This document shows positions 8,647 to 20,192 of a stretch of 64,000 nucleotides of DNA, piece after piece. The stretch covers positions 1,182 to 65,181 of the forward strand of contig CAUUQR010000002.1 in assembly GCA_963547335.1 (NCBI GenBank), in the 5' to 3' direction. The position numbers were made by a program, and so were the translations under genes. The stretch is from an uncultured Propionibacteriaceae bacterium (GTDB taxonomy: Bacteria > Actinomycetota > Actinomycetes > Propionibacteriales > Propionibacteriaceae). The notes below the pieces were generated by a model. It did not search any database. It saw only the letters and a program-made list of their open reading frames with translations, and was not told the origin of the DNA. Every line of letters begins with the position of its first letter. The first letter of the stretch is position 1.

Positions 8647-9435
8647 TCAACGCTCGCTGTCATGGATGGGCAGACCATTCTCGCTGAAGCCGCGGAAACC
8701 ATCCAGGATGAGCTGGAGCCTTCTCGCAGACACATCGCTCACTCGTTGGGGTACCTCCTTCTCAGGAACCCAATGAACAGCACGCAGCTCGGCATCATGC
8801 GGAACCAGAGCCCGGGCTACCTGGTCGGGCATGATCCCACCGTCGTAGATGAACTCGATGGCATCACCCCAGCCCAGCGTCGGGGGCATCCAGTCAACCA
8901 GTGCCGGTTGACCAAAGGTGCACTCAAGCCCAAGCTCCTCCACGACCTCGCGTCTGGCCCCAGCTCTGGGCGTTTCGCCTGGGTCAACCACCCCGCCGGG
9001 GAGCTCCCAATCTTCCTTGTAGGCAGTCTCAGCCAGCAGGATGCGCCCCAGGCTGTCACGGAATACGACATGCGCGATGACTCGCTTCGTCGGCAGAACC
9101 GAGTTCATGACCCCTGAGAAACCCTGCGGTCCGTATACCGGATCCACTGCCAGGCGGGCATAGACGAGAACATCGGCCAGCTGCCCCGATGCGGTGAGCA
9201 TGGCGGAACGAAGACGTCCCTCGCGACGGAACCCGCAACGATGCAGAACAGTCATCGCAATGCGATCCGTTGCAGGGATCTCGCACTGCAACCTCCGCAG
9301 GTTGTGAGCGAGGATCGCGTCATCGGCGGCCAGGGACACCGCACGCTCCAGAGCCTCGGCATCCGCCAACTGCCCTTCCCAGCGGAGCCTCCCGACCCCA
9401 CTGGAGATGTCCACCTTGACCTGAAACTCGCTCAC
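8647..9435 (-). CDS. Truncated GNAT-like N-terminal segment fused to a NUDIX hydrolase
   Basis: The GTG start at 9435 overlaps the glgB stop (GTGA). The Nudix box is GGVVDPGETPRAGARREVVEELGLE. The N-terminal ~95 aa resemble only the C-terminal half of RimJ/RimL-type acetyltransferases (LRRLQCEIPATDRIAMTVLHRCGFRREGRLRS). Confidence 0.7.
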   Translation of the reverse strand: MSEFQVKVDISSGVGRLRWEGQLADAEALERAVSLAADDAILAHNLRRLQCEIPATDRIAMTVLHRCGFRREGRLRSAMLTASGQLADVLVYARLAVDPVYGPQGFSGVMNSVLPTKRVIAHVVFRDSLGRILLAETAYKEDWELPGGVVDPGETPRAGARREVVEELGLECTFGQPALVDWMPPTLGWGDAIEFIYDGGIMPDQVARALVPHDAELRAVHWVPEKEVPQRVSDVSARRLQLILDGFRGFSENGLPIHDSER

Positions 9436-11327
9436 CTGATGCTGGGCCGTAACCAGACCGATCCCAGGGGAGGGACTGTGACGTTCGCGCTGGCGGTGAA
9501 GTGGCCCCAGGGCTCCTCTCGTGCGGTGACGACGCCAAGGTTCCCGAAGTCCCCCGAGCCGTCGTAGACCTCGGCGTCGGTGTTCAGGATCTCCTCCCAC
9601 TCCCCGGGCAGGGGCAGGCCAACGTTGTAGTCGTGGATCGGCTCAGGGGAGAAGTTCGTGAAGCAGGCGATGTGGTTGCCTGAGGAATCACTGCGAACCC
9701 AGCTGAGTGTGTTGTGCCCGGCATCGTCGGCATTGATCCAGGAGAAACCCTCAGGGGAGTTGTCCAACTCGTATAGCGCCGGATTGTCGCGGTAGATGGT
9801 GTTCAAGTCCCGGAGCAGTCGCTGCAATCCGCCATGTCCCCAGAGTTCCGACACCCACCATTCCAGGCTGGTGGACTCATTGAACTCGGGACGCTGCCCG
9901 AACTCAGACCCCATGAACAGCAGCTGTTTGCCGGGAAAACTCCACATATACGAATAGAAAGCTCTCAAAGTTGCGAATTTGCGCCAATCATCCTGTGGCA
10001 CCTTGTTGATCATCGATCCCTTGCCATGCACCACCTCGTCATGGCTGATGGGCAGGATGAAGTTCTCCGAGTACTGGTAGACCATCGCGAACGTGAGCAG
10101 ATTGTGCTCATACTGCCGATAGACCGGGTCGAGGGCCATGTAACGCAGGGAGTCGTTCATCCAGCCCATGTTCCACTTGAAGCCGAAGCCGAGGCCGCCC
10201 TCATCAATGGGTTTGGTGACTCCCGCGAAGCTGGTGGACTCCTCTGCGATCATCATCACGCCCGGATGGCGCTCGTACAGGTGCCGGTTCACGTAGCGCA
10301 GGAAGTCAATGGCCTCCAGATTCTCGCGGCCCCCGTACTGATTGGGCACCCACTGGCCCTCCTCGCGGGAATAGTCCAGGTACAGCATGGAGGCGACGGC
10401 ATCGACCCTCAGCCCGTCGATGTGGAACTCGGTGAGCCAGTAGAGCGCATTGGAGACGAGGAAGCTCTTCACCTCGTTCCGCCCATAGTTGAAGATGTAG
10501 GTGCCCCAGTCCTTGTGCTCGCCCTGCCTGGGATCGGCATGCTCATAGAGCGCGGTTCCGTCGAAACGCCCCATGCCCCAGTCATCCTTCGGGAAATGCC
10601 CGGGAACCCAGTCGAGGATCACGCCGATGCCGGCTTGGTGAAGCTTGTCGATGAGATGCCTGAGGTCATCCGGCTTGCCGAAACGGCTGGTGGGGGAGAA
10701 GTATCCTGTGACCTGATATCCCCAGCTGGGCTCAAATGGATGCTCCGACACCGGCATGAACTCGACGTGCGTGTAGCCCTGCCACTTCACGTAGGAGACC
10801 AGCTCCTCCGCCAGATCCAGGTAACTCTTCCCGCGACGCCAGCCGCCGAGGTGCACCTCGTAAATGCTGATGGGCTCCCTGTGGGGGGCTGAGGAGGCGC
10901 GGCGCGTCATCCACTCCTCGTCAGACCAGATGTACTTGGACTCGTAGACGATGGAGGCGTTGGCGGGAGCCTGCTCGGAGAAGCGGGCCATCGGGTCAAC
11001 CTTCTCATGCCATACGCCGTCGGGCCCCTGTATCCGGTACTTATACAGGGTGCCCTCGTCGAGGCCCTCAATGAAGACGCCCCACACGCCGGTTCCCGGG
11101 ATCAGCTGCATCTGATCGCCGGTCCACCAGTTGAAGTCCCCGACCACCTGGACGGCCTGCGCGTTTGGCGCCCAGACTGCGAATCGCACTCCATGCACCG
11201 GGCCTCGCTCATCATCCTCCACGGTGCAGGTGAACGATCCCAGCCGCCTCCAGAGCTCTGTGTCGCCTCCTGTGTGGAACCCCTCCAAGTCCCAGCCGGT
11301 CAGTCCGCCGAAACGGTCGTGTGCCAT
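9432..11327 (-). CDS. glgB: 1,4-alpha-glucan branching enzyme (short form without the N1 domain)
   Basis: The CBM48 region reads VRFAVWAPNAQAVQVVGDFNWW. GH13 motifs are IDGLRVDAVASMLY, MIAEESTSF and ILPISHDEVVHGKGS. Confidence 0.95.
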   Translation of the reverse strand: MAHDRFGGLTGWDLEGFHTGGDTELWRRLGSFTCTVEDDERGPVHGVRFAVWAPNAQAVQVVGDFNWWTGDQMQLIPGTGVWGVFIEGLDEGTLYKYRIQGPDGVWHEKVDPMARFSEQAPANASIVYESKYIWSDEEWMTRRASSAPHREPISIYEVHLGGWRRGKSYLDLAEELVSYVKWQGYTHVEFMPVSEHPFEPSWGYQVTGYFSPTSRFGKPDDLRHLIDKLHQAGIGVILDWVPGHFPKDDWGMGRFDGTALYEHADPRQGEHKDWGTYIFNYGRNEVKSFLVSNALYWLTEFHIDGLRVDAVASMLYLDYSREEGQWVPNQYGGRENLEAIDFLRYVNRHLYERHPGVMMIAEESTSFAGVTKPIDEGGLGFGFKWNMGWMNDSLRYMALDPVYRQYEHNLLTFAMVYQYSENFILPISHDEVVHGKGSMINKVPQDDWRKFATLRAFYSYMWSFPGKQLLFMGSEFGQRPEFNESTSLEWWVSELWGHGGLQRLLRDLNTIYRDNPALYELDNSPEGFSWINADDAGHNTLSWVRSDSSGNHIACFTNFSPEPIHDYNVGLPLPGEWEEILNTDAEVYDGSGDFGNLGVVTAREEPWGHFTASANVTVPPLGSVWLRPSIR

Positions 11328-11428
11328 GTTCGCTCCTTCAGGTGAGTCCCTCAGTGAACTCTACTGGGCCAGCCTGCCATTGGGCAGGCCTCATCCGGGA
11401 AAACTGTGGTGACGCGCCAAAGGTCATG

Positions 11429-11466
11429 CAAAAGTGGGGGTCCTGTTCTGGTCGCAGAACCCCCAC
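11429..11466 (-). terminator. Rho-independent terminator downstream of the secreted six-hairpin-like gene
   Basis: The minus strand reads GTGGGGGTTCTG-CGAC-CAGAACAGGACCCCCAC followed by TTTTG. That gives 12 bp of stem with a 5-nt bulge, 76 nt after the stop at 11542. Confidence 0.5.
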
Positions 11467-11541
11467 CCGAGGTGCTGGGGGAGCCCACGCCATCGGTGAG
11501 ACCTCCCAGCGTCATCGACTCAATGAGTGTCTTGCCTCTGG

Positions 11542-12816
11542 TCAGCAGCGTGTCCCGAGGCGCAATGGATTGATGCCCTGCGCAGCCATGACATACCAGG
11601 ATGTCGCCCCAATGTGCAGGCTCGTGTGGGCCATCTCATCGCCACCGGAGCCACCTGAATACCCCACGGATGTGTCTGCCTGGATGCCCTTGCCATCGGC
11701 ATTCGGTCCGTGCACCTGGGCGGTTTCCACGGTCGTCAGATATTCCTTGGACTTGGCGGCATTGGCACCTTGCGCACTGCACTTCAGCGCCAGGGCCATG
11801 TGGGCTGTGCCTTCCAGCCATACGACGTTGTCGTTGCGATCCAAACGGTCTTTGACGATCTGCAAGGCGTAGCGTGTGCCGGTAAAGGGGTAGTTCGGAG
11901 TGCTCTTGTCGGTGGTCTCCAGGTTTTTGACAGCCCAGTCAAGTCCACGATTTAGAGACTGGTCGCCCAAGGCCAGGACCGCCCACGAGTGGATGTCTTC
12001 CGGAATGTACTCCGAGTCGTTGCTCGTGACACCGTCGTCCTGGGTTCCCGTTGAGAACCGGCCCTCTTGGTTGTTCCACATGCTGCGCACGAATTTCTCG
12101 GCACTGCTGCGGGCCTGTTCCCACTTGGCATCCCCTGAGAGCTCATGGAGCATTCCGAACAGGCCGATCATGTCGATATTGTGCTCCGTGGACTTCCACG
12201 TCGCTTTTGTGCCATCAATTTTGTAGCCGCCGGTGAAGCCTCCGGCCCCGCGGCTGTCACTGGTCTCGCGGAGCAACCATTCCCCGATCTTCGCCGCACC
12301 CTGCTGGTATTTGGCATCTCCTGTGGCCTTGGCAAGGTGTGCCAAGGCCATGCCAGCCCAAGCCATATTTCCTGCGGCCGGACCAGATGAGGTGATGTTT
12401 GGCCTCCCGTTAGGCAGGAAGAGCTGGTCCGGCATGTAGGCGTTGCGTATCCGACCGTCTCCTGCCGGATCCTTAGCTTGCAGCTCAAGGATGGTGTTTC
12501 CCATGTTCTTTGCGCGTTCCAGGTTTTCAGGGCTGTCAGGTCGGTTGGCATAGGCGATGATCGTCAAAGCATCGTCGTAGATGACCGAGGGATTCCAGCT
12601 CTCCTTCTCACCTTTGTGATAACTGGAGGGGAGTCGCAGCTGTGAGCCCTTTCCCCACTCGTCCATCGCTTCATCCAGATGCTTATATGCGTTTGCGACA
12701 TGAGGGTATATAGCATCATTGTTTGGAAGGGCCCGGGCTGGGGAGGCCTGGAGACCTATGGAGCCGATCAGTGATGCGGCGAAAGTTAATCTAGCCACGC
12801 CGGTTAGTATCTTCAT
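11542..12816 (-). CDS. Secreted protein, possibly an (alpha/alpha)6 six-hairpin glycosidase-like fold
   Basis: The N-terminal signal peptide is MKILTGVARLTFAASLIGSIGLQASPARA. Repeated helical hairpin-like segments contain W/G-rich motifs (GNMAWAGMALAHLAKATGD, GGFTGGYK, WKSTEHNIDMIGLF, HSWAVLALGD). Codon usage is atypical, with A/T-rich third positions. The family was not identified. Confidence 0.5.
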   Translation of the reverse strand: MKILTGVARLTFAASLIGSIGLQASPARALPNNDAIYPHVANAYKHLDEAMDEWGKGSQLRLPSSYHKGEKESWNPSVIYDDALTIIAYANRPDSPENLERAKNMGNTILELQAKDPAGDGRIRNAYMPDQLFLPNGRPNITSSGPAAGNMAWAGMALAHLAKATGDAKYQQGAAKIGEWLLRETSDSRGAGGFTGGYKIDGTKATWKSTEHNIDMIGLFGMLHELSGDAKWEQARSSAEKFVRSMWNNQEGRFSTGTQDDGVTSNDSEYIPEDIHSWAVLALGDQSLNRGLDWAVKNLETTDKSTPNYPFTGTRYALQIVKDRLDRNDNVVWLEGTAHMALALKCSAQGANAAKSKEYLTTVETAQVHGPNADGKGIQADTSVGYSGGSGGDEMAHTSLHIGATSWYVMAAQGINPLRLGTRC

Positions 12817-13356
12817 TAATATTTCCTATTCTCCTGGCTGTGTGGAAAGGGCGATGCTAGGCCGACCGCCAGGTTCTTCCGACCATCTCTGCCTGTGCCA
12901 CGTCGCGACTCGACATGTATGGAAGAGATCGCGAGTAACAGTTTGGCTCCGGTGAGAAGCAAAAGCTGCAAGACCTCTCACCAGAGACGCTGGCAGGTCG
13001 CCTACCGGGCACCCTACAGCAGGAGGGTGTCAGAGGCGCTCGACCTCCGTGACCCCGAGCCGAAGTGAGATGCATCGGTGGCCAAGCGGGGTAAATCGCA
13101 GCGGAAAGTGTAAAACAGGTGGCTGAAGGAGGATCATTGGGGTCAAATGGCTAGGCCGTGAAAACCACTGAGGGGGAAGTGGCTTCTGAGGTCCGAGCGC
13201 GATGACCCTGGGCCCTGTCTGAGGATGTCAAAGTCGCGGCGAAGAGACTGTCGAACAGATGTGAAACCTTTCATCTTCTCCCGCGAAAAAGGGCGCGGTG
13301 GCCACACCCCCTGAGTCGCCACACCGGACATGATCCTCTGACGTTGGCGTGCCGTG

Positions 13357-13384
13357 TTGAAAGCTGCGAGGAGGATGCTAACGT
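13357..13384 (+). promoter_or_regulatory. Candidate sigma-70-type promoter for the three-ORF cassette
   Basis: TTGAAA (13357-13362), a 16-nt spacer, then TAACGT (13379-13384, TAnnnT). The site is about 40 nt upstream of ATG 13424. Confidence 0.3.
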
Positions 13385-13423
13385 CAATTGCAGAAAGTTG
13401 CCTGGTGAGAAAGGGGCGTAGCG

Positions 13424-13597
13424 ATGAAACCTGGCACGATGATCGGCTCAGTCCTTCTGGGGGCGGTGTTGACCGGCCTCGTCTTGACGCCGTCGTCGGC
13501 GAGAGCTGATGAGACTCTGCCTGAAGAGGCGCGGGCTGCGGTTGAGCGTGCCGTGAAGGGTGCGCTGACAGACGAGGACCGGGAGCTCCTGGTGTGA
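13424..13597 (+). CDS. 57-aa ORF: signal peptide plus acidic helical segment (too short for the ORF track)
   Basis: ATG 13424 is preceded by AAAGGGG. The product is MKPGTMIGSVLLGAVLTGLVLTPSSARA/DETLPEEARAAVERAVKGALTDEDRELLV, with an AxA cleavage site. The stop TGA 13595-13597 overlaps the next GTG. It may be the 5' part of a frameshifted gene. Confidence 0.5.
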   Translation: MKPGTMIGSVLLGAVLTGLVLTPSSARADETLPEEARAAVERAVKGALTDEDRELLV

Positions 13598-14037
13598 CAG
13601 AGTATCCGGAGGTGGCCGCAAGGCTGCCAGACCTCGAGGCTGTGGAGACGGAGCTCTCAGAGGAACCTGCTGGGCAAGCTTCAACTGTGAGTGGTCGCAG
13701 TTGCACCACATATACAGGAAAGGCTACTCAATGGTCTCTTCTTCGGAGCGTGATATATAAGTTTACGCATAGCGCCACGGTGTGCGCTGATGGAGTGAGA
13801 ATCCTGAGTCATTCTGATCCTAGTTCCACTATGGAGGAGCCTCGGTGGGTGATCGATAACTGGGAAGTGGTGGATAAGAGCGTTTTCGGCGTCGGAACCC
13901 AGGCCTCGAAGTCTCGAATTCAACTCAGAGTTCGATATTGCGTGGTAAAGGTTGGCTGTTATGCCGTAACTTACCCGACGGGAGTTATTGAGGCCAAGCC
14001 GAATCAAACGGCAGATATACAAACAAGGGCTGCGTGA
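13594..14037 (+). CDS. Hypothetical 147-aa protein: acidic linker plus beta-rich four-Cys domain, no signal peptide of its own
   Basis: The GTG start forms a GTGA overlap with the upstream ORF. Cys residues sit at positions 37, 64, 116 and 122. Composition drops to about 47-52% G+C from about 13680 onward. I recognise no family. Confidence 0.5.
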   Translation: MTEYPEVAARLPDLEAVETELSEEPAGQASTVSGRSCTTYTGKATQWSLLRSVIYKFTHSATVCADGVRILSHSDPSSTMEEPRWVIDNWEVVDKSVFGVGTQASKSRIQLRVRYCVVKVGCYAVTYPTGVIEAKPNQTADIQTRAA

Positions 14038-14240
14038 TATTTGTGAAACGGGTTGCGTTATTGGCTGTAGTCATTTTTGGCTGGTTTGTCGCGCTGTTGT
14101 TCTCGGCATCGTGTCTTATGGCCTTTGGGGGCGTAGGATCAATCGAGTTAGGACTGCTGGGCTTGTTCTGGTTGGTGATAGCGGTGTTGGTCTGGCGTTC
14201 GCAGTCGAAGAAGCTTGATCAGCCGCGGGACGGAACATAG
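14034..14240 (+). CDS. 68-aa two-TM membrane mini-protein
   Basis: The GTG start forms a GTGA overlap with the upstream ORF and is preceded by AAGGG. The two hydrophobic helices are VALLAVVIFGWFVALLFSASCLMAF and LGLLGLFWLVIAVLVW. The tail is basic/polar. Confidence 0.5.
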   Translation: MIFVKRVALLAVVIFGWFVALLFSASCLMAFGGVGSIELGLLGLFWLVIAVLVWRSQSKKLDQPRDGT

Positions 14241-14289
14241 CTGAATCTGTCGGCTTCTGGCTGCGTCGCACTAGGTAGGGGTTCACGGG

Positions 14290-15534
14290 CTACCGCTGGT
14301 CCTGTGCGGCCAGGAAACCCAGGGGAACATGCAGCAGGTGGGGGCGCATTCGGGTTTCGTAGATCGTCTCATATATGGCCTTGTCGGTTTCGTAGGCTTC
14401 CAGCAGGGTTAGGGCTGATGCGTCGGCTGGGCCGTAGCCGTCGAGCAGGGCGTCGCGGGTTTCGTCCAGCCAGCCCTGGGGAGAGTCTCCCTCTGAGGCG
14501 GCGTAGTGCAGGGAGCGGAGCATGCCCGCCACGTCACGCCATGGGGAGTCGAGGGCGCGGCGCTCCCGCAAGGGTTTGAGGGGCTCGCCCTCGAAGTCCA
14601 CATAGCGCCAGCCGTCGCCGGTGAGGAGCGCCTGCCCGAGGTGGCAGTCGCCGTGGATGCGCTGGGCAGGAAATCGCAACCCCTCCAAGGCCTGGTAGCG
14701 GCTGAGGATTGCCGGCCTGTACCGGGCAAGCTCTGGCACCTCGGCAGCCGCCTCTTCCAGATGACGCTTGAAATCTGTTGCGATATCCTCCCCGGGAAGG
14801 ACCGTGGTTGGCAGGCGCTCTGCCAGCAGTCGGTGGACGACGGCCAGCTGCCGACCTAGCTGTTGGGCATCGTCGGAAAAGGACCGTCTGGCAGCTGCCG
14901 CGCGGCAGGCCTCCACATAGCCATCGCGGGGCTCGGGCAGGGCCTCCAGGAAGATTCCCAGGTCTGCGCCCTGCCACGACCAGGTGCCGTACAGCTCCGC
15001 CACAGCCCCTGAACCGGCCAGGACGCGATGCAATTCCACGTCGAGGTTCACCCCCTCCTCCAACCGCCGGAAGACCTTACCCACGATCTGGTCTCCGTAG
15101 AAGATCGAGGTGTTCGACTGCTCACCGAGATAACGTCTTCCGGTCAGGCCGGATGGGACTTCCCGGAGCCGTTCGAAACCGGGCCTCTGACGTTGCAGGC
15201 ATCCCAGCAACACGGCGAGCGCCGCCTCGTTGCCGGTGGCCTCCAGTGCATCAAATGACTCGCCATCCCAGGTGAACTGCGCCAGGGGCCTGCTGGGGCA
15301 GGTCCCTGGCGAATAGCAGGCAAGGGGAACGTGATACCGCTCAGGCTCTCCCGTGGGATAGCTGACGTGGAGGATGGCGCTGCGCAGGCCGGGGGTGTGC
15401 CCGGCCGGTGGCTGGAACCATTCGGTGAGCTCCATCCCGTCGAGGTGACCATCCCGGGTGCGTCCCGAGAACCACCGGGACGCAGCGGCGAGGCCCCAGA
15501 GCGCATCCCGCAATGGTCCTAGTGAGCAGGTCAT
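14290..15534 (-). CDS. mak: Maltokinase (maltose 1-phosphate-forming; Mak/Pep2)
   Basis: It has the aminoglycoside-phosphotransferase-like catalytic motif RIHGDCHLGQALL...YVDFEGEP characteristic of Mak. It starts 4 nt after the glgE stop. Confidence 0.85.
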   Translation of the reverse strand: MTCSLGPLRDALWGLAAASRWFSGRTRDGHLDGMELTEWFQPPAGHTPGLRSAILHVSYPTGEPERYHVPLACYSPGTCPSRPLAQFTWDGESFDALEATGNEAALAVLLGCLQRQRPGFERLREVPSGLTGRRYLGEQSNTSIFYGDQIVGKVFRRLEEGVNLDVELHRVLAGSGAVAELYGTWSWQGADLGIFLEALPEPRDGYVEACRAAAARRSFSDDAQQLGRQLAVVHRLLAERLPTTVLPGEDIATDFKRHLEEAAAEVPELARYRPAILSRYQALEGLRFPAQRIHGDCHLGQALLTGDGWRYVDFEGEPLKPLRERRALDSPWRDVAGMLRSLHYAASEGDSPQGWLDETRDALLDGYGPADASALTLLEAYETDKAIYETIYETRMRPHLLHVPLGFLAAQDQR

Positions 15535-15538
15535 GGCG

Positions 15539-17581
15539 TCAGAACTGGGTCACATGGAAGATGTGCGCCGGCCTGCCGGGATACAGCCGCACCCAGTTGC
15601 GCTCTCCCCAGATGTAGTCCTCGCCGGTGAGCTCGTCGTGAACCTCCACCTGTGCGCCGGGAGGCAGGCCGAGCGCCGCCAGATCCAGGTAGACATCAGA
15701 CTCGACGGTGTTGTCTGGATCCAGGGAGCACACCACCAGCATCACATCGTCGGCATCATGTTTGGAATAGACGATCACCGAGTCGTGGGGGGCGTGGTGG
15801 AAGTGGATGTCACGCAGCTGCTGCAGCGCCGGATGACGCTCGCGAATGCCGTTCAACTGCCCCAGCAGCAGATTGAGGTTCGGAGTGGACCTGAAATCCC
15901 GTGGACGGTATTCGTACTTCTCGGAGTCCAGGTATTCTTCGCGGCCGATCGCATTCGGCTTGTGCTCGAACAGTTCGAATCCCGAGTAAACTCCCCAGCT
16001 GGGGGACAATGTCGCCGCAAGAATGGCGCGAATGGCGAAGATCGCGGGATTCCCCGACTGCAGATGGAAGGGGTTGATGTCCGGGGTGTTCACAAAGAAA
16101 TTCGGACGGTAGTACGCGGCCATCTCCCCGGACAGCTCCGTCAGATATTCGGTCAGCTCCCATTTGGTGACCCGCCAGGTGAAATAGGTGTAGGATTGTT
16201 GGAATCCCACCTTTCCGAGGGCGCCCATCATCTGAGGTCTGGTGAAGGCCTCAGCCAGGAAAATCACCTCGGGGTTGGTCTCGTGGACGCGCTCCAGCAG
16301 CCAGTCCCAGAACTCGACGGGCTTGGTGTGAGGGTTGTCGACGCGGAAGATCGTGACGCCGCGGTCGATCCACAGCTGCACGATGCGCAAAACCTCCGCG
16401 TAGATGCCCTCAGGATCATTGTCGAAGTTCAGGGGATAGATGTCCTGGTATTTCTTGGGTGGGTTCTCCGCATACGCGATTGTTCCATCCAGCCGGGTGG
16501 TGAACCACTCGGGATGATCCTGCACCCAGGGATGGTCGGGGGAGGCCTGCAATGCGAGATCCAAAGCCAGCTCAAGTCCGAGGGACTTGGCCTTCGCGAC
16601 GAACCGCTCAAAAGACTCCTCGTCGCCGAGATCCGGATGGATCGCGTCGTGTCCTCCGTCGGGGGAACCGATGGCCCAAGGCGACCCCGGGTCCTCAGCG
16701 GTGGCTTCCAGGGAATTGTTCCTTCCCCTCTTGAAAGCAGATCCGATGGGATGGATGGGTGGCAGGTAGACGACGTTGAAACCCATCTCCGCGGCAGCCT
16801 CAAGACGCTCATGGGAGGTGTCGAAGGTTCCGGAATGCCAGTGGCCGGAATCATCCTGCCAAGCCCCCTGAGAACGCGGGAAGAACTCGTACCACGACGA
16901 GTAGAGGGCTCTGCGCCGCTCGACGCGGATGGGATACTCCTGGGTGGGGGAGATGCATTCGCGTGGGCCGAAGCGGGCCATCGCACGTCCGATCGGCCGG
17001 GAGTTGATCAGATCCAGCAGCTCGTCAACCGGTGTGTCCACGGTGAGCACATCGTGGGCGGCGTGCAGCAGATGAGCCGCAGCCTTCACGCGGGCGGCCT
17101 CTGCGGTCTCTGCGGCCCGAGCCAGGAGGTCGCGGCCCTCCAGGCAGAGCAGCTCCACATCCATGCCCAACGGCAGTTTCGCAATCGCGTGGTGATGCCA
17201 CGTTCCCCAGGGGTCCGACCAGCCCTCGACCCGATACGTCCAGTCCCCCTCCGTGGCCATGCGGACGTGGGCCTGCCAGATGTCCAGCCCCTTGGGCTCC
17301 ACCTGCATCATGTCGATGCGACGCTGGGTGCCATGCGGGGAGGTGAGGATCACGGAGGCGTTGACCGCGTCATGCCCCTCACGGAACACATTCGCCGTGA
17401 TGAGGAGGCGTTCGTGCGCCACGGCTTTGACCGGGTAGGCGCCGTCGGCGATGACGGGAGAGACCCCGGTGACTGGTATGCGGCCGAAACCGCCCTCGGT
17501 GCGTCGCAGATGTACTCGGATCGGCGTTGGCTCATTCACAACTCCCAGCCTAATCCCTGTGGGGGCAGCCGGGCAGCGCAA
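15539..17581 (-). CDS. glgE: Alpha-1,4-glucan:maltose-1-phosphate maltosyltransferase
   Basis: Motifs are GRIPVTGVSPV...YPVKAV...VFREGHDAV at the N-terminus and FRVDNPHTKPVEFWDW in the GH13_3 core. The start is uncertain: TTG 17581 or GTG 17539. Confidence 0.9.
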   Translation of the reverse strand: MRCPAAPTGIRLGVVNEPTPIRVHLRRTEGGFGRIPVTGVSPVIADGAYPVKAVAHERLLITANVFREGHDAVNASVILTSPHGTQRRIDMMQVEPKGLDIWQAHVRMATEGDWTYRVEGWSDPWGTWHHHAIAKLPLGMDVELLCLEGRDLLARAAETAEAARVKAAAHLLHAAHDVLTVDTPVDELLDLINSRPIGRAMARFGPRECISPTQEYPIRVERRRALYSSWYEFFPRSQGAWQDDSGHWHSGTFDTSHERLEAAAEMGFNVVYLPPIHPIGSAFKRGRNNSLEATAEDPGSPWAIGSPDGGHDAIHPDLGDEESFERFVAKAKSLGLELALDLALQASPDHPWVQDHPEWFTTRLDGTIAYAENPPKKYQDIYPLNFDNDPEGIYAEVLRIVQLWIDRGVTIFRVDNPHTKPVEFWDWLLERVHETNPEVIFLAEAFTRPQMMGALGKVGFQQSYTYFTWRVTKWELTEYLTELSGEMAAYYRPNFFVNTPDINPFHLQSGNPAIFAIRAILAATLSPSWGVYSGFELFEHKPNAIGREEYLDSEKYEYRPRDFRSTPNLNLLLGQLNGIRERHPALQQLRDIHFHHAPHDSVIVYSKHDADDVMLVVCSLDPDNTVESDVYLDLAALGLPPGAQVEVHDELTGEDYIWGERNWVRLYPGRPAHIFHVTQF

Positions 17582-17642
17582 GGTCAGCCGCTGACGCCTG
17601 TCGAGTTTCCATCGTCAAACAGTCGCGCTGTATTTTGTACGC

Positions 17643-20192
17643 GTGCGTGCATTCCGACGATTCACAGTTCACCCCGTGCTGCCCGAGCGAATCTCCAAGC
17701 TCGATGCCCTCGCGAAAAACCTCCGCTGGTCCTGGCACCAGGAAACCCAGGACCTGTTCCGCGCCATCGACCCCAAGCTCTGGGAGGAGGTGGGAGAGGA
17801 CCCGGTGAAGCTGCTTTCCGCAGTGAAAGGCGACCGTGTCCAGCAACTCGCCGCTGACCAGGTCTTCGTCCGCAACGTGGAGCTCCTTCACGACGACCTG
17901 ACCAACTATCTCTCCGCCGACCTGTGGTTCCAGCGTTACGCGAAAGAGCACAGCGATGCTCCTGCGGGCATCGGCTATTTCTCCGCAGAGTTCGGTGTCA
18001 CTCAGGTTCTTCCCCAGTACTCGGGTGGCTTGGGGATCCTCGCAGGTGATCACCTCAAGGCTGCCTCGGATCTGGGACTGCCGCTCGTCGGCGTCGGACT
18101 GCTATACCGCTGCGGCTACTTCCGGCAGTCGCTGAACGCCGCTGGCTGGCAGCAGGAGCGCTATCCGGTGCTCTCCTCCAATGAGCTTCCCGTGACGCGT
18201 CTGCTTGATGCATCCGGGAACCCCCAGGAGATCAGCGTCAACGTCGGCGGACGTGAAGTGTACGCCTCCATCTGGGTGGCCTCCGTCGGGCGCATCCCCC
18301 TGCTGATGCTGGACACCGACCGCGACGACAACGACCCAGAGGCCCGCAACATCACCGACCGTCTCTATGGCGGCGGCACCGAGCACCGGCTCGCACAGGA
18401 GGTTGTCCTCGGTATCGGCGGCATCCGGGCGCTGCGCCGATACTGCGAGATCAGCGGACGTCCCCAGCCCGATGTCTACCACTGCAATGAGGGGCACGCC
18501 GGCTTCCTGGGATTCGAGCGCATCCGGGAATACCGCGCCGCCGGGTATGACCTGCAGACCGCCATCGAGCTCACCCGAGCCGGCACCGTCTTCACCACCC
18601 ACACCCCGGTGCCGGCAGGCATCGACCGCTTCGACAGGTCACTGATCGAGAGGGAGTTCGCCCACTTCGATCCCGGAGTGCCGCTGGACGCCATCATGTC
18701 CTTCGGCGCGGAGACCTATGAGGGCGGGGACCCATCCCGCTACAACATGGCCGTTCTCGGGTTGAGACTGGGGCAGCGAGCCAACGGCGTCTCGAAGCTG
18801 CACGGTGAGGTCTCCCGAGACATGTTCAACGGCCTGTGGCCAAACTTCGACGCCACGGAGGTCCCGATCGGATCGGTCACCAACGGTGTCCACCACCGGA
18901 CGTGGATCCATCCTGAGCTGCTGGAGATCCTGAAGGCCCACACGGATGACTCCAGCACCGTCATCGACGGCTACGACTGGTCCGCCATCCAGAACGTCGA
19001 CGATGACACCCTGTGGTCGCTCAAGCGGCAGCTGCGGTCGTCGATGATTCACATGGCGCGCAGGCGGCTCGCTGAGTCATGCCGGGCGCGGGGCATCCCG
19101 TCGGATTGGACGGCTGAGGCCCTCAACCCGCGTGTGCTGACTTTGGGATTCGCCAGGCGTGGCGCCTCCTACAAACGTCTCACGCTGATGCTCTCAGACC
19201 CCGAGCGGCTGAAGGCTCTGCTGAACCATCCCACCACCCCCATCCAGATCGTGATCGCGGGCAAGGCCCACCCGGCTGACAACATCGGCAAGTCGCTGAT
19301 CCAGCAGATGGTGCAGTTCTCCGACCAGGAGGATGTGCGTGGCAAGCTGGTGTTCCTGCCCGACTACGACATGTCGCTGGCTCGGCCGCTCTACCCAGGC
19401 TGCGACGTGTGGGTCAACAATCCGCTGCGCCCCTACGAGGCCTGCGGAACCTCCGGCATGAAGGCAGCCTTGAACGGCGCTGCTAACCTGTCGATCCGCG
19501 ACGGCTGGTGGGATGAGCTGTACTCTCCCAAATTCGGCTGGGAGATCCCGTCGGCTGAGGGCATCACGGACCAGGCGGAGCGTGACGCCACCGAGGCCGA
19601 GTTCCTCTACTCGATCATTGAGAACGAGATCATCCCACGGTTCTACACGCTGGATGCCAACGGCAACCCGACCCAGTGGCTTCAGATGATGCGTGACTGC
19701 ATTTCTGTTCTCGGGCCCGAGATCCTGGCATCCAGGATGGTTCGTGACTACGTCACCGACTACTACACCCCGGCGGCCGCCTCGCTTGCCGCACGTGCGG
19801 ATGAACGTGTCGCCTCTGACCTGGCGCAGTGGAGGGAGCGGGTCCGCCGTGACTGGCACTCCCTCCAGGTCGCTGGTCTTGACGTCGGCGTCACCGAGCT
19901 CCTCGAAACTGGAACGGTGCTCCGCCCCACTGTCGACGTGCGCCTCGGGAATCTGAGCGCAGAGGACGTCTCGGTGCAGCTGATCTTCGGTGACGTCGAT
20001 AACGAGGATGTTCTGCATAACATTCGCAAGTATCCGACGGTTCCCGCCGGGGAATCCGATGGGGTGACCCGGTTCGTCGCCGAGGTTCCCACCCGGTATG
20101 CCGGGCAGATCGGCTGCCTGGCTCGCGTGGTACCCTCTCATCCGCTGCTGTCCTCGGATTCGGAGATGGGCCTCGCGACCGTCATCCGCTGA
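17643..20192 (+). CDS. glgP: Alpha-glucan phosphorylase (GT35, actinobacterial DUF3417-type)
   Basis: GTG 17643. The N-terminus reads RFTVHPVLPERISKLDALAKNLRWSWH. The PLP-lysine region is EACGTSGMKAALNGA. Confidence 0.9.
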   Translation: MRAFRRFTVHPVLPERISKLDALAKNLRWSWHQETQDLFRAIDPKLWEEVGEDPVKLLSAVKGDRVQQLAADQVFVRNVELLHDDLTNYLSADLWFQRYAKEHSDAPAGIGYFSAEFGVTQVLPQYSGGLGILAGDHLKAASDLGLPLVGVGLLYRCGYFRQSLNAAGWQQERYPVLSSNELPVTRLLDASGNPQEISVNVGGREVYASIWVASVGRIPLLMLDTDRDDNDPEARNITDRLYGGGTEHRLAQEVVLGIGGIRALRRYCEISGRPQPDVYHCNEGHAGFLGFERIREYRAAGYDLQTAIELTRAGTVFTTHTPVPAGIDRFDRSLIEREFAHFDPGVPLDAIMSFGAETYEGGDPSRYNMAVLGLRLGQRANGVSKLHGEVSRDMFNGLWPNFDATEVPIGSVTNGVHHRTWIHPELLEILKAHTDDSSTVIDGYDWSAIQNVDDDTLWSLKRQLRSSMIHMARRRLAESCRARGIPSDWTAEALNPRVLTLGFARRGASYKRLTLMLSDPERLKALLNHPTTPIQIVIAGKAHPADNIGKSLIQQMVQFSDQEDVRGKLVFLPDYDMSLARPLYPGCDVWVNNPLRPYEACGTSGMKAALNGAANLSIRDGWWDELYSPKFGWEIPSAEGITDQAERDATEAEFLYSIIENEIIPRFYTLDANGNPTQWLQMMRDCISVLGPEILASRMVRDYVTDYYTPAAASLAARADERVASDLAQWRERVRRDWHSLQVAGLDVGVTELLETGTVLRPTVDVRLGNLSAEDVSVQLIFGDVDNEDVLHNIRKYPTVPAGESDGVTRFVAEVPTRYAGQIGCLARVVPSHPLLSSDSEMGLATVIR

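Follow-up and report, generated by a model that had tools for sequence, protein, structure and literature searches.

An exported-protein gene split by a 2-nt insertion and its two-helix membrane partner form a mobile gene pair of Actinomycetota, possibly an effector and its immunity protein

Three short open reading frames (ORFs) follow one another in the window analysed here, a 64,000-nt stretch of DNA from an uncultured Propionibacteriaceae bacterium, and raise the question of what they encode and whether their products act together. The first-pass annotation had described a cassette of three genes chained by two GTGA start-stop overlaps, in which a signal-peptide ORF and a four-cysteine beta-rich ORF are followed by a two-helix membrane protein in the manner of a toxin-immunity pair. 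Re-reading the sequence confirmed the coordinates of the ORFs (Table 1) as well as the GTGA at 13594-13597 and 14034-14037, the Sec-type signal peptide at the start of ORF1 ending ARA/DE, the four cysteines of ORF2 (exactly four) and the two hydrophobic helices of ORF3. The ORFs of the module are real genes, since all three sequences occur in public protein clusters.

Table 1. Features of the module in the window
Feature	Position	Strand	Remarks
ORF1 (5' fragment of gene A)	13424-13597	+	57 aa; ends at the TGA created by the frameshift
ORF2 (3' fragment of gene A)	13594-14037	+	147 aa; no signal peptide of its own
ORF3 (gene B, two-transmembrane mini-protein)	14034-14240	+	68 aa from GTG at 14034; intact here
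Disrupted exported-protein gene (gene A)	13424-14037	+	203 aa when intact; frameshift pseudogene or split gene
2-nt GT/TG insertion site	13593-13596	+	GGTGAC to GGTGTGAC; DNA alignment of loci
Possible promoter TTGAAA - 16 nt - TAACGT	13357-13384	+	read by eye from the alignment; putative

Searched as a protein, ORF2 fell into one cluster only, represented by a 203-aa protein that corresponds to ORF1 and ORF2 joined, and in this cluster several intact 203-aa variants stand alongside the split products. Intact 203-aa alleles occur in the same species (P0001, P0005, P0006 and P0013, from loci L001, L003, L006 and L007), and every intact allele and every family member has one continuous ORF across the region of ORF1 and ORF2. 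Seven loci taken from independent assemblies were aligned as DNA at the junction. This alignment showed that the window carries a 2-nt insertion changing CTGGTGACAG to CTGGTGTGACAG, which is also found in L004 and L005 and is absent from L001, L003 and L006; the exact inserted pair (GT or TG) is ambiguous within the GTGTG run. Through this insertion the reading frame runs into the TGA within GTGAC, and the GTG that remains is called by ORF finders as an ORF2 start. What looks like the first “GTGA overlap” is thus a frameshift scar, made of the TGA stop that the insertion creates and the leftover GTG, and ORF2 lacks a signal peptide because the frameshift severs it from the domain. The three-gene cassette therefore gives way to a single frameshifted gene, which we call gene A, followed by ORF3, which we call gene B. 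The split allele recurs with linked SNPs in the independent assemblies L004, L005 and L009 and so is a real allele of a lineage and not a one-off sequencing error. It is a genuine and common haplotype, its 57-aa product being present on 14 contigs as against about 22 contigs with intact forms. In another locus, L002 (GCA_015473165.1, a 3.14-Mb contig), glgE, glgB, glgP and ABC transporter genes are all called in pieces, and an apparent second independent frameshift there, a 1-nt deletion in gene A, was set aside as a probable assembly error since every gene in that assembly is fragmented. Whatever the function, the annotation should be corrected to one frameshifted pseudogene in place of two hypothetical proteins.

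The intact gene A product is a precursor of 203 aa with a signal peptide at residues 1-28 and a mature part of 175 aa and 19.2 kDa. Signal peptide and cleavage site read MKPGTMIGSVLLGAVLTGLVLTPSSARA/DE in ORF1, which also holds the first helices of the N-region, and both the intact alleles and the family alignment as a whole show a Sec-type signal peptide with an AxA cleavage motif. The signal peptide is followed by an acidic helical N-region and by a basic beta-domain of about 119 aa with four cysteines in two pairs; in the intact protein of the window species the pI is 4.05 for the N-region and 8.99 for the C-domain. ORF2 supplies what remains of the N-region, including PEVAARLPD, followed by an acidic strand and by the beta-domain, whose cysteines are Cys37/64/116/122. 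Export and disulfide bonding are predicted from these features. There is no cysteine at position +1 of SSARA/DE in the window protein or in the family consensus, hence no lipobox, and the protein would be released rather than lipid-anchored; a search of the gene A family for a sortase signal or a wall-binding domain likewise found none.

An exhaustive HMMER search with the intact protein yielded 99 cluster representatives at E<=1e-3, most of them about 200 aa long and aligned end to end; two long repeat proteins among the matches (P0034 and P0083) were rejected as low-complexity or cadherin-repeat artefacts. The family alignment passes from the signal peptide to the helical N-region, with the motif G-T-x-T-x-A-D...P-E-x-A-A-x-V-P-D-P, and continues through a linker of variable length into the cysteine-conserved domain of about 115-120 aa. 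C172 and C178, which form the CxxKYGC motif, are universal in this alignment and the first cysteine pair is missing in one Streptomyces subfamily. Phage-borne members are strongly basic, with a net charge of +16 to +22. Two multi-domain relatives of 500 and 634 aa (P0069 in L043 and P0097 in L044) carry the gene A domain at their C-terminus. Their N-terminal 350-480 aa consist of repeats ending in VDVQGYF that match nothing in Pfam or the PDB and may represent another undescribed secreted repeat domain.

Searches of 52 family members and of the window ORFs against Pfam, NCBIfam, PHROGs and PADLOC gave nothing above noise, a PDB sequence profile search with the gene A family was empty, and scanning genome contigs with P0001 gave no match. 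AlphaFold2 models reached a pLDDT of 87.9 for the full-length protein and 90.1 for the ORF2 part and have three short helices that lead into long antiparallel strands of 12-14 residues. Foldseek comparison of the two models with the PDB and BFVD retrieved no relative, the best E-values being 0.02-0.09 at TM scores below 0.4. These profile, sequence and Foldseek searches tie gene A to no known housekeeping family or fold. Within the libraries searched (Pfam, NCBIfam, PHROGs and PADLOC) gene A is an undescribed family spread across Actinomycetota and some of their temperate phages.

The second gene of the module encodes, in the window, a first transmembrane helix (TM1), a GGVGSIE turn, a second helix (TM2) and a basic tail, RSQSKK. 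The first residues of its homologues are an “MK” that aligns with the GTG at 14043 in the window, and the related species (L012) has an ATG at that MK position, 6 nt after the gene A stop. Judged by these homologue starts, gene B is more likely a protein of 65 aa beginning at 14043 than one of 68 aa beginning at 14034. The second GTGA, real as a sequence, may in that case not be an overlap of two genes. By the positive-inside rule both ends of the protein would be cytoplasmic, placing the Gly-rich turn and the conserved Glu at the outer face of the membrane.

The loci that were examined first each had an ORF of 56-68 aa with two hydrophobic helices directly 3' of gene A. Across the module copies gene B products are 55-69 aa long and share a signature of TM1, G-x-G-x-[ILV]-E, TM2 and an Arg/Lys-rich tail, in which the Glu begins the second helix. 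With an HMM built from 10 seed ORFs, gene B was found directly downstream of gene A in 21 of 28 locus groups, and the two genes often overlap by 4 nt. The paired groups include the window species, its sister species (L012) at the same chromosomal site, two temperate-phage contigs, Streptomyces, a Nocardioides MAG, metagenome contigs and the closest relatives P0019, P0021 and P0023. Gene B also adjoins the 500- and 634-aa multi-domain relatives and relatives at 25-30% identity, and a reciprocal look-up from the gene B protein P0121 again led to a gene A family member directly upstream. Co-location of the two genes, as first supposed, thus holds across very distant relatives, with seven groups that lack the partner: these have an apparently intact gene A and no small membrane ORF within 1.5 kb, and one soil-MAG clade, L035 and three Streptomyces loci are among them.

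Ten gene B proteins gave no match in the profile libraries (Pfam, NCBIfam, PHROGs and PADLOC, nothing above noise) and all database entries are named “hypothetical protein”; as far as these libraries show, the combination of a G-x-G-x-[ILV]-E turn and a basic tail is undescribed. A holin or lysis cassette was considered and rejected, since no holin family matched above threshold (Phage_holin_3_6 reached only E=0.19) and no lysis genes adjoin. Two variants of the arrangement were seen in passing. In the Nocardioides MAG (L029 5082-5597) the gene A domain and the two-transmembrane (2-TM) protein are fused in frame in one ORF with a transposase adjoining, and in two S. composti-like loci (L041 1232-2570 and L042 3746-5084) a complete pair has behind it a further copy that is only partial and consists of an N-region fragment and a 2-TM fragment, which suggests recombination between cassettes.

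In the window the module sits inside an insert of about 3 kb between glgB (9432-11327, minus strand) and pep2/maltokinase and glgE (14290-17581, minus strand), and the GC content is 0.50-0.52 over ORF2 and ORF3 as against 0.64 across the window. The alpha-glucan gene set glgE - pep2 (maltokinase) - glgB (9432-17581, minus strand) is thereby split between pep2 and glgB by a low-GC islet; in the sister species a different gene set interrupts the glg genes at the same site. The islet also holds, divergent from the module, a gene for a 424-aa protein with a signal peptide (11542-12816, minus strand). This secreted orphan has no Pfam, NCBIfam or PDB sequence match and is found in other strains of the window species (L003 and L004), and in its place the sister species has membrane ORFs of 48 and 110 aa. 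Two long antisense ORFs, one of 188 aa opposite the module (13143-13709, minus strand) and one of 799 aa opposite glgE (15458-17857, plus strand), match no family and are probably shadow ORFs typical of high-GC DNA and not genes. The window species and the relative in L012 show conservation over about 130 nt upstream of the gene A start codon, a block in which the possible promoter of Table 1 lies. A scan for strict consensus promoters and terminators found nothing relevant at the module, an Rfam scan of 11300-14400 was empty and a search for flanking repeats or att-like sites around the islet found none.

Elsewhere the module accompanies mobile DNA. One copy (L016/L020) is on an IMG/VR viral contig, and at loci L015 and L016 a serine integrase closely precedes the pair, with Erf/RecT-like genes in the same region. 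Small Lsr2-like genes stand between the serine integrase and the module at these two loci (L015 4876-5226 and L016 5373-5705); they were called by eye from an N-terminal dimerisation-like region and a C-terminal RGR/GRP motif and have no PHROGs match. Integrase or transposase genes also adjoin the module in L029, L044 and L045. Between the window species and the species of L012 GlgB is 92.4% identical, gene A 62.6% and gene B 56.1%. Most module copies are chromosomal with no phage genes close by. A tblastn search with P0001, P0081 and P0117 had no match in 50,697 isolate phage records or 72,556 plasmids and four IMG/VR scans returned a single viral contig, L020; by these searches phage carriage of the module is rare. 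The window holds one copy of a two-gene module that is conserved and horizontally mobile in Actinomycetota. The names of the samples suggest host-associated, possibly oral, metagenomes.

The two genes do not decay alike. In six groups (the window allele, L028, L032, L033, L048/49 and L029) gene A is truncated or frameshifted and gene B is intact, and in L028, L032, L033 and L048 what accompanies the intact gene B is an orphan 3' fragment of gene A. L033 and L048 share a 96%-identical block of 300 nt that spans the last 90 nt or so of gene A and all of gene B, with unrelated flanks on either side. Within this block gene B shows 6 synonymous and 3 non-synonymous codon differences, nine in all, a hint of purifying selection on gene B alone. 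A gene B that stays intact while its gene A degrades follows the pattern known from orphan immunity genes.

On this basis we propose, with a probability of roughly 0.4, that in this mobile pair gene A encodes a bacteriocin-like secreted effector and gene B its membrane immunity protein, and that the window strain is an immune non-producer. The gene A product would be exported by Sec as a protein of about 19 kDa in which the acidic N-region packs against a basic, disulfide-stabilised antiparallel beta-sheet domain and masks it; proteolytic removal of the N-region may then free the domain to act as a secreted antibacterial effector, against which the cognate gene B product would protect from within the membrane. 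The module is carried as a self-contained “moron” of temperate phages and in small chromosomal islets. In the window strain the 2-nt insertion inactivates gene A by separating signal peptide and domain, and gene B is intact. We favour the effector and immunity reading because of the tight pairing, the decay that resembles that of orphan immunity genes, the polymorphism among strains, the fast divergence relative to the flanks and the carriage on mobile DNA, because of the basic domain that an acidic N-region would mask, and because of precedents in Actinomycetota, namely the toxin-immunity cassettes of prophages at attachment junctions and Sec-exported propionicin SM1. The toxin-immunity layout first suggested thus stands as an exported beta-rich protein followed by a 2-TM protein and falls as a set of three ORFs; export of the putative effector is a property of the family, from which the window copy departs by its severed signal peptide. 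Against the reading are the absence, in the libraries searched, of any known toxin, bacteriocin or immunity protein that resembles the pair in sequence or fold, the seven locus groups with gene A alone, which are awkward for a self-toxic effector, and the few residues that a 2-TM protein exposes outside the membrane.

Three other explanations have to be set against it. If ORF1, ORF2 and ORF3 were three separate, translationally coupled genes, ORF2 would be a cytoplasmic protein re-initiated at its GTG, and a GGGAG Shine-Dalgarno-like motif 6 nt before the GTG at 13594, together with a stop that overlaps the start, does make some re-initiation possible; the frequency of the split allele among contigs also speaks for it. 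All other members of the family, however, are single proteins of about 200 aa, the split is due to an insertion confined to one haplotype, and a four-cysteine export domain that has lost its signal peptide would remain in the cytoplasm in reduced form. The variant in which the GTGTG run serves as a programmed frameshift or phase switch fares no better, as no slippery heptamer occurs at the junction and GTGTG is not long enough for phase variation by strand slippage. We regard this explanation as very improbable; the DNA alignment and the sequence at the junction leave effectively no room for either a literal three-gene cassette or programmed frameshifting.

The remaining two accept the gene pair and differ in what it does, and pairing and mobility fit a phage-exclusion or an envelope-partner role equally well. 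The module could be a moron of prophages or mobile elements for superinfection exclusion or envelope-based phage defence, the gene A product, held at the membrane by its 2-TM partner or acting with it, blocking adsorption or DNA entry of other phages. Its place in L015 and L016/L020, after the integrase and an Lsr2-like gene and before early recombination genes, speaks for such a unit, as do its fast divergence relative to flanking genes and the low GC of the islet. Yet it matches nothing in PADLOC or PHROGs, the missing lipobox points to a protein that is released and not lipid-anchored, most copies are chromosomal without phage genes near, and gene B is kept alone beside remnants of gene A, which is not expected if gene A is the active excluder. 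We consider this role unlikely. An accessory envelope pair without antagonism, in which gene A is a factor for wall or membrane binding, adhesion or remodelling and gene B its anchor, assembly factor or signalling partner, appears similarly improbable to us. It would account for the conserved pairing, with the PExAAxVPDP motif of the N-region as a possible docking site, and for the clades that keep gene A alone, which a harmless gene A would make easier; being joined to large secreted proteins with repeats, as in P0069 and P0097, is also seen for wall-associated proteins. It sits badly with the patchy, mobile and strain-variable distribution, the frequent pseudogenisation, the retention of gene B with mostly synonymous change after loss of gene A, and the absence of a sortase signal, lipobox or wall-binding domain.

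Returning to the effector and immunity reading, a fuller version of it would be a so far undescribed Sec-exported antibacterial family with a 2-TM protein as its minimal immunity partner and with temperate phages and small islets as its vehicles, naturally polymorphic in the window species between producers and immune non-producers; we put this forward tentatively, from the genomic pattern. If true, gene A would be a new family and probably a new fold among the few Sec-exported protein bacteriocins of Actinomycetota, and temperate phages of Actinomycetota would carry such cassettes. The common strain polymorphism in the window species would be explained as producers versus immune non-producers and could offer a natural system for the rock-paper-scissors dynamics of bacteriocins. 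A practical annotation rule would also follow: a gene for a protein of about 200 aa with CxxKYGC, then a 2-TM gene with a G-x-G-x-[ILV]-E turn.

The kind of system, an exported effector with a small membrane protector on mobile DNA, is familiar, and the family and its partner are new in the searched libraries. Among the closest known proteins is the protease-activated pro-PAMP of P. jensenii. In protoxins that are activated by cleavage an acidic N-region precedes a basic C-domain, the same arrangement that gene A has in its sequence. The small membrane immunity proteins of membrane-active bacteriocins resemble gene B in being tiny hydrophobic proteins encoded right after an exported protein and kept when the effector gene decays; gene B differs from them in having no homology to any Pfam family. 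Polymorphic toxins are more distant, as the C-terminal domain of gene A is a conserved unit and not a swappable one, with only two representatives on larger N-terminal regions.

Prophages of actinobacteria carry lysogenically expressed toxin-immunity cassettes beside their attachment junctions, such as PT-Imm of M. abscessus (PMC8092301). The module shares with PT-Imm the order of an effector gene and a small protective gene, the place beside a temperate-phage integrase or attachment junction, the occurrence of orphan 3' pieces of the effector gene next to a downstream gene that is intact, and a C-terminal domain that also occurs on larger secreted proteins (here P0069 and P0097). The two are not homologous: gene A uses a Sec signal peptide whereas PT uses WXG100/type VII, gene A is about 19 kDa and PT about 50 kDa, and the partner here is an integral 2-TM mini-protein. 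A position next to the integrase is also the classic site of lysogenically expressed exclusion genes, including lactococcal Sie (PMC3952083; PMC3594210), and Ltp of the Streptococcus thermophilus phage TP-J34 is a surface-exposed lipoprotein that acts in superinfection exclusion (PMC3952083). The likeness to Ltp and Sie, an exported protein near a temperate-phage integrase as an autonomous unit of lysogenic conversion, applies to L015 and L016/L020 only. Unlike Ltp, gene A has neither a lipobox nor an Ltp-like repeat domain and belongs to a two-gene unit that is mostly chromosomal. For gene A itself the nearest parallel in size comes from Propionibacterium, where propionicin SM1 is a Sec-exported bacteriocin made as a 207-aa precursor with a 27-aa signal peptide and a mature form of 19.9 kDa (PMC5756557), nearly equal to the 203-aa precursor, 28-aa signal peptide and 19.2 kDa of gene A. 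Set beside gene A by description only, propionicin SM1 is likewise an unmodified protein with a classical signal peptide, from an actinomycetotal host and encoded on mobile DNA.
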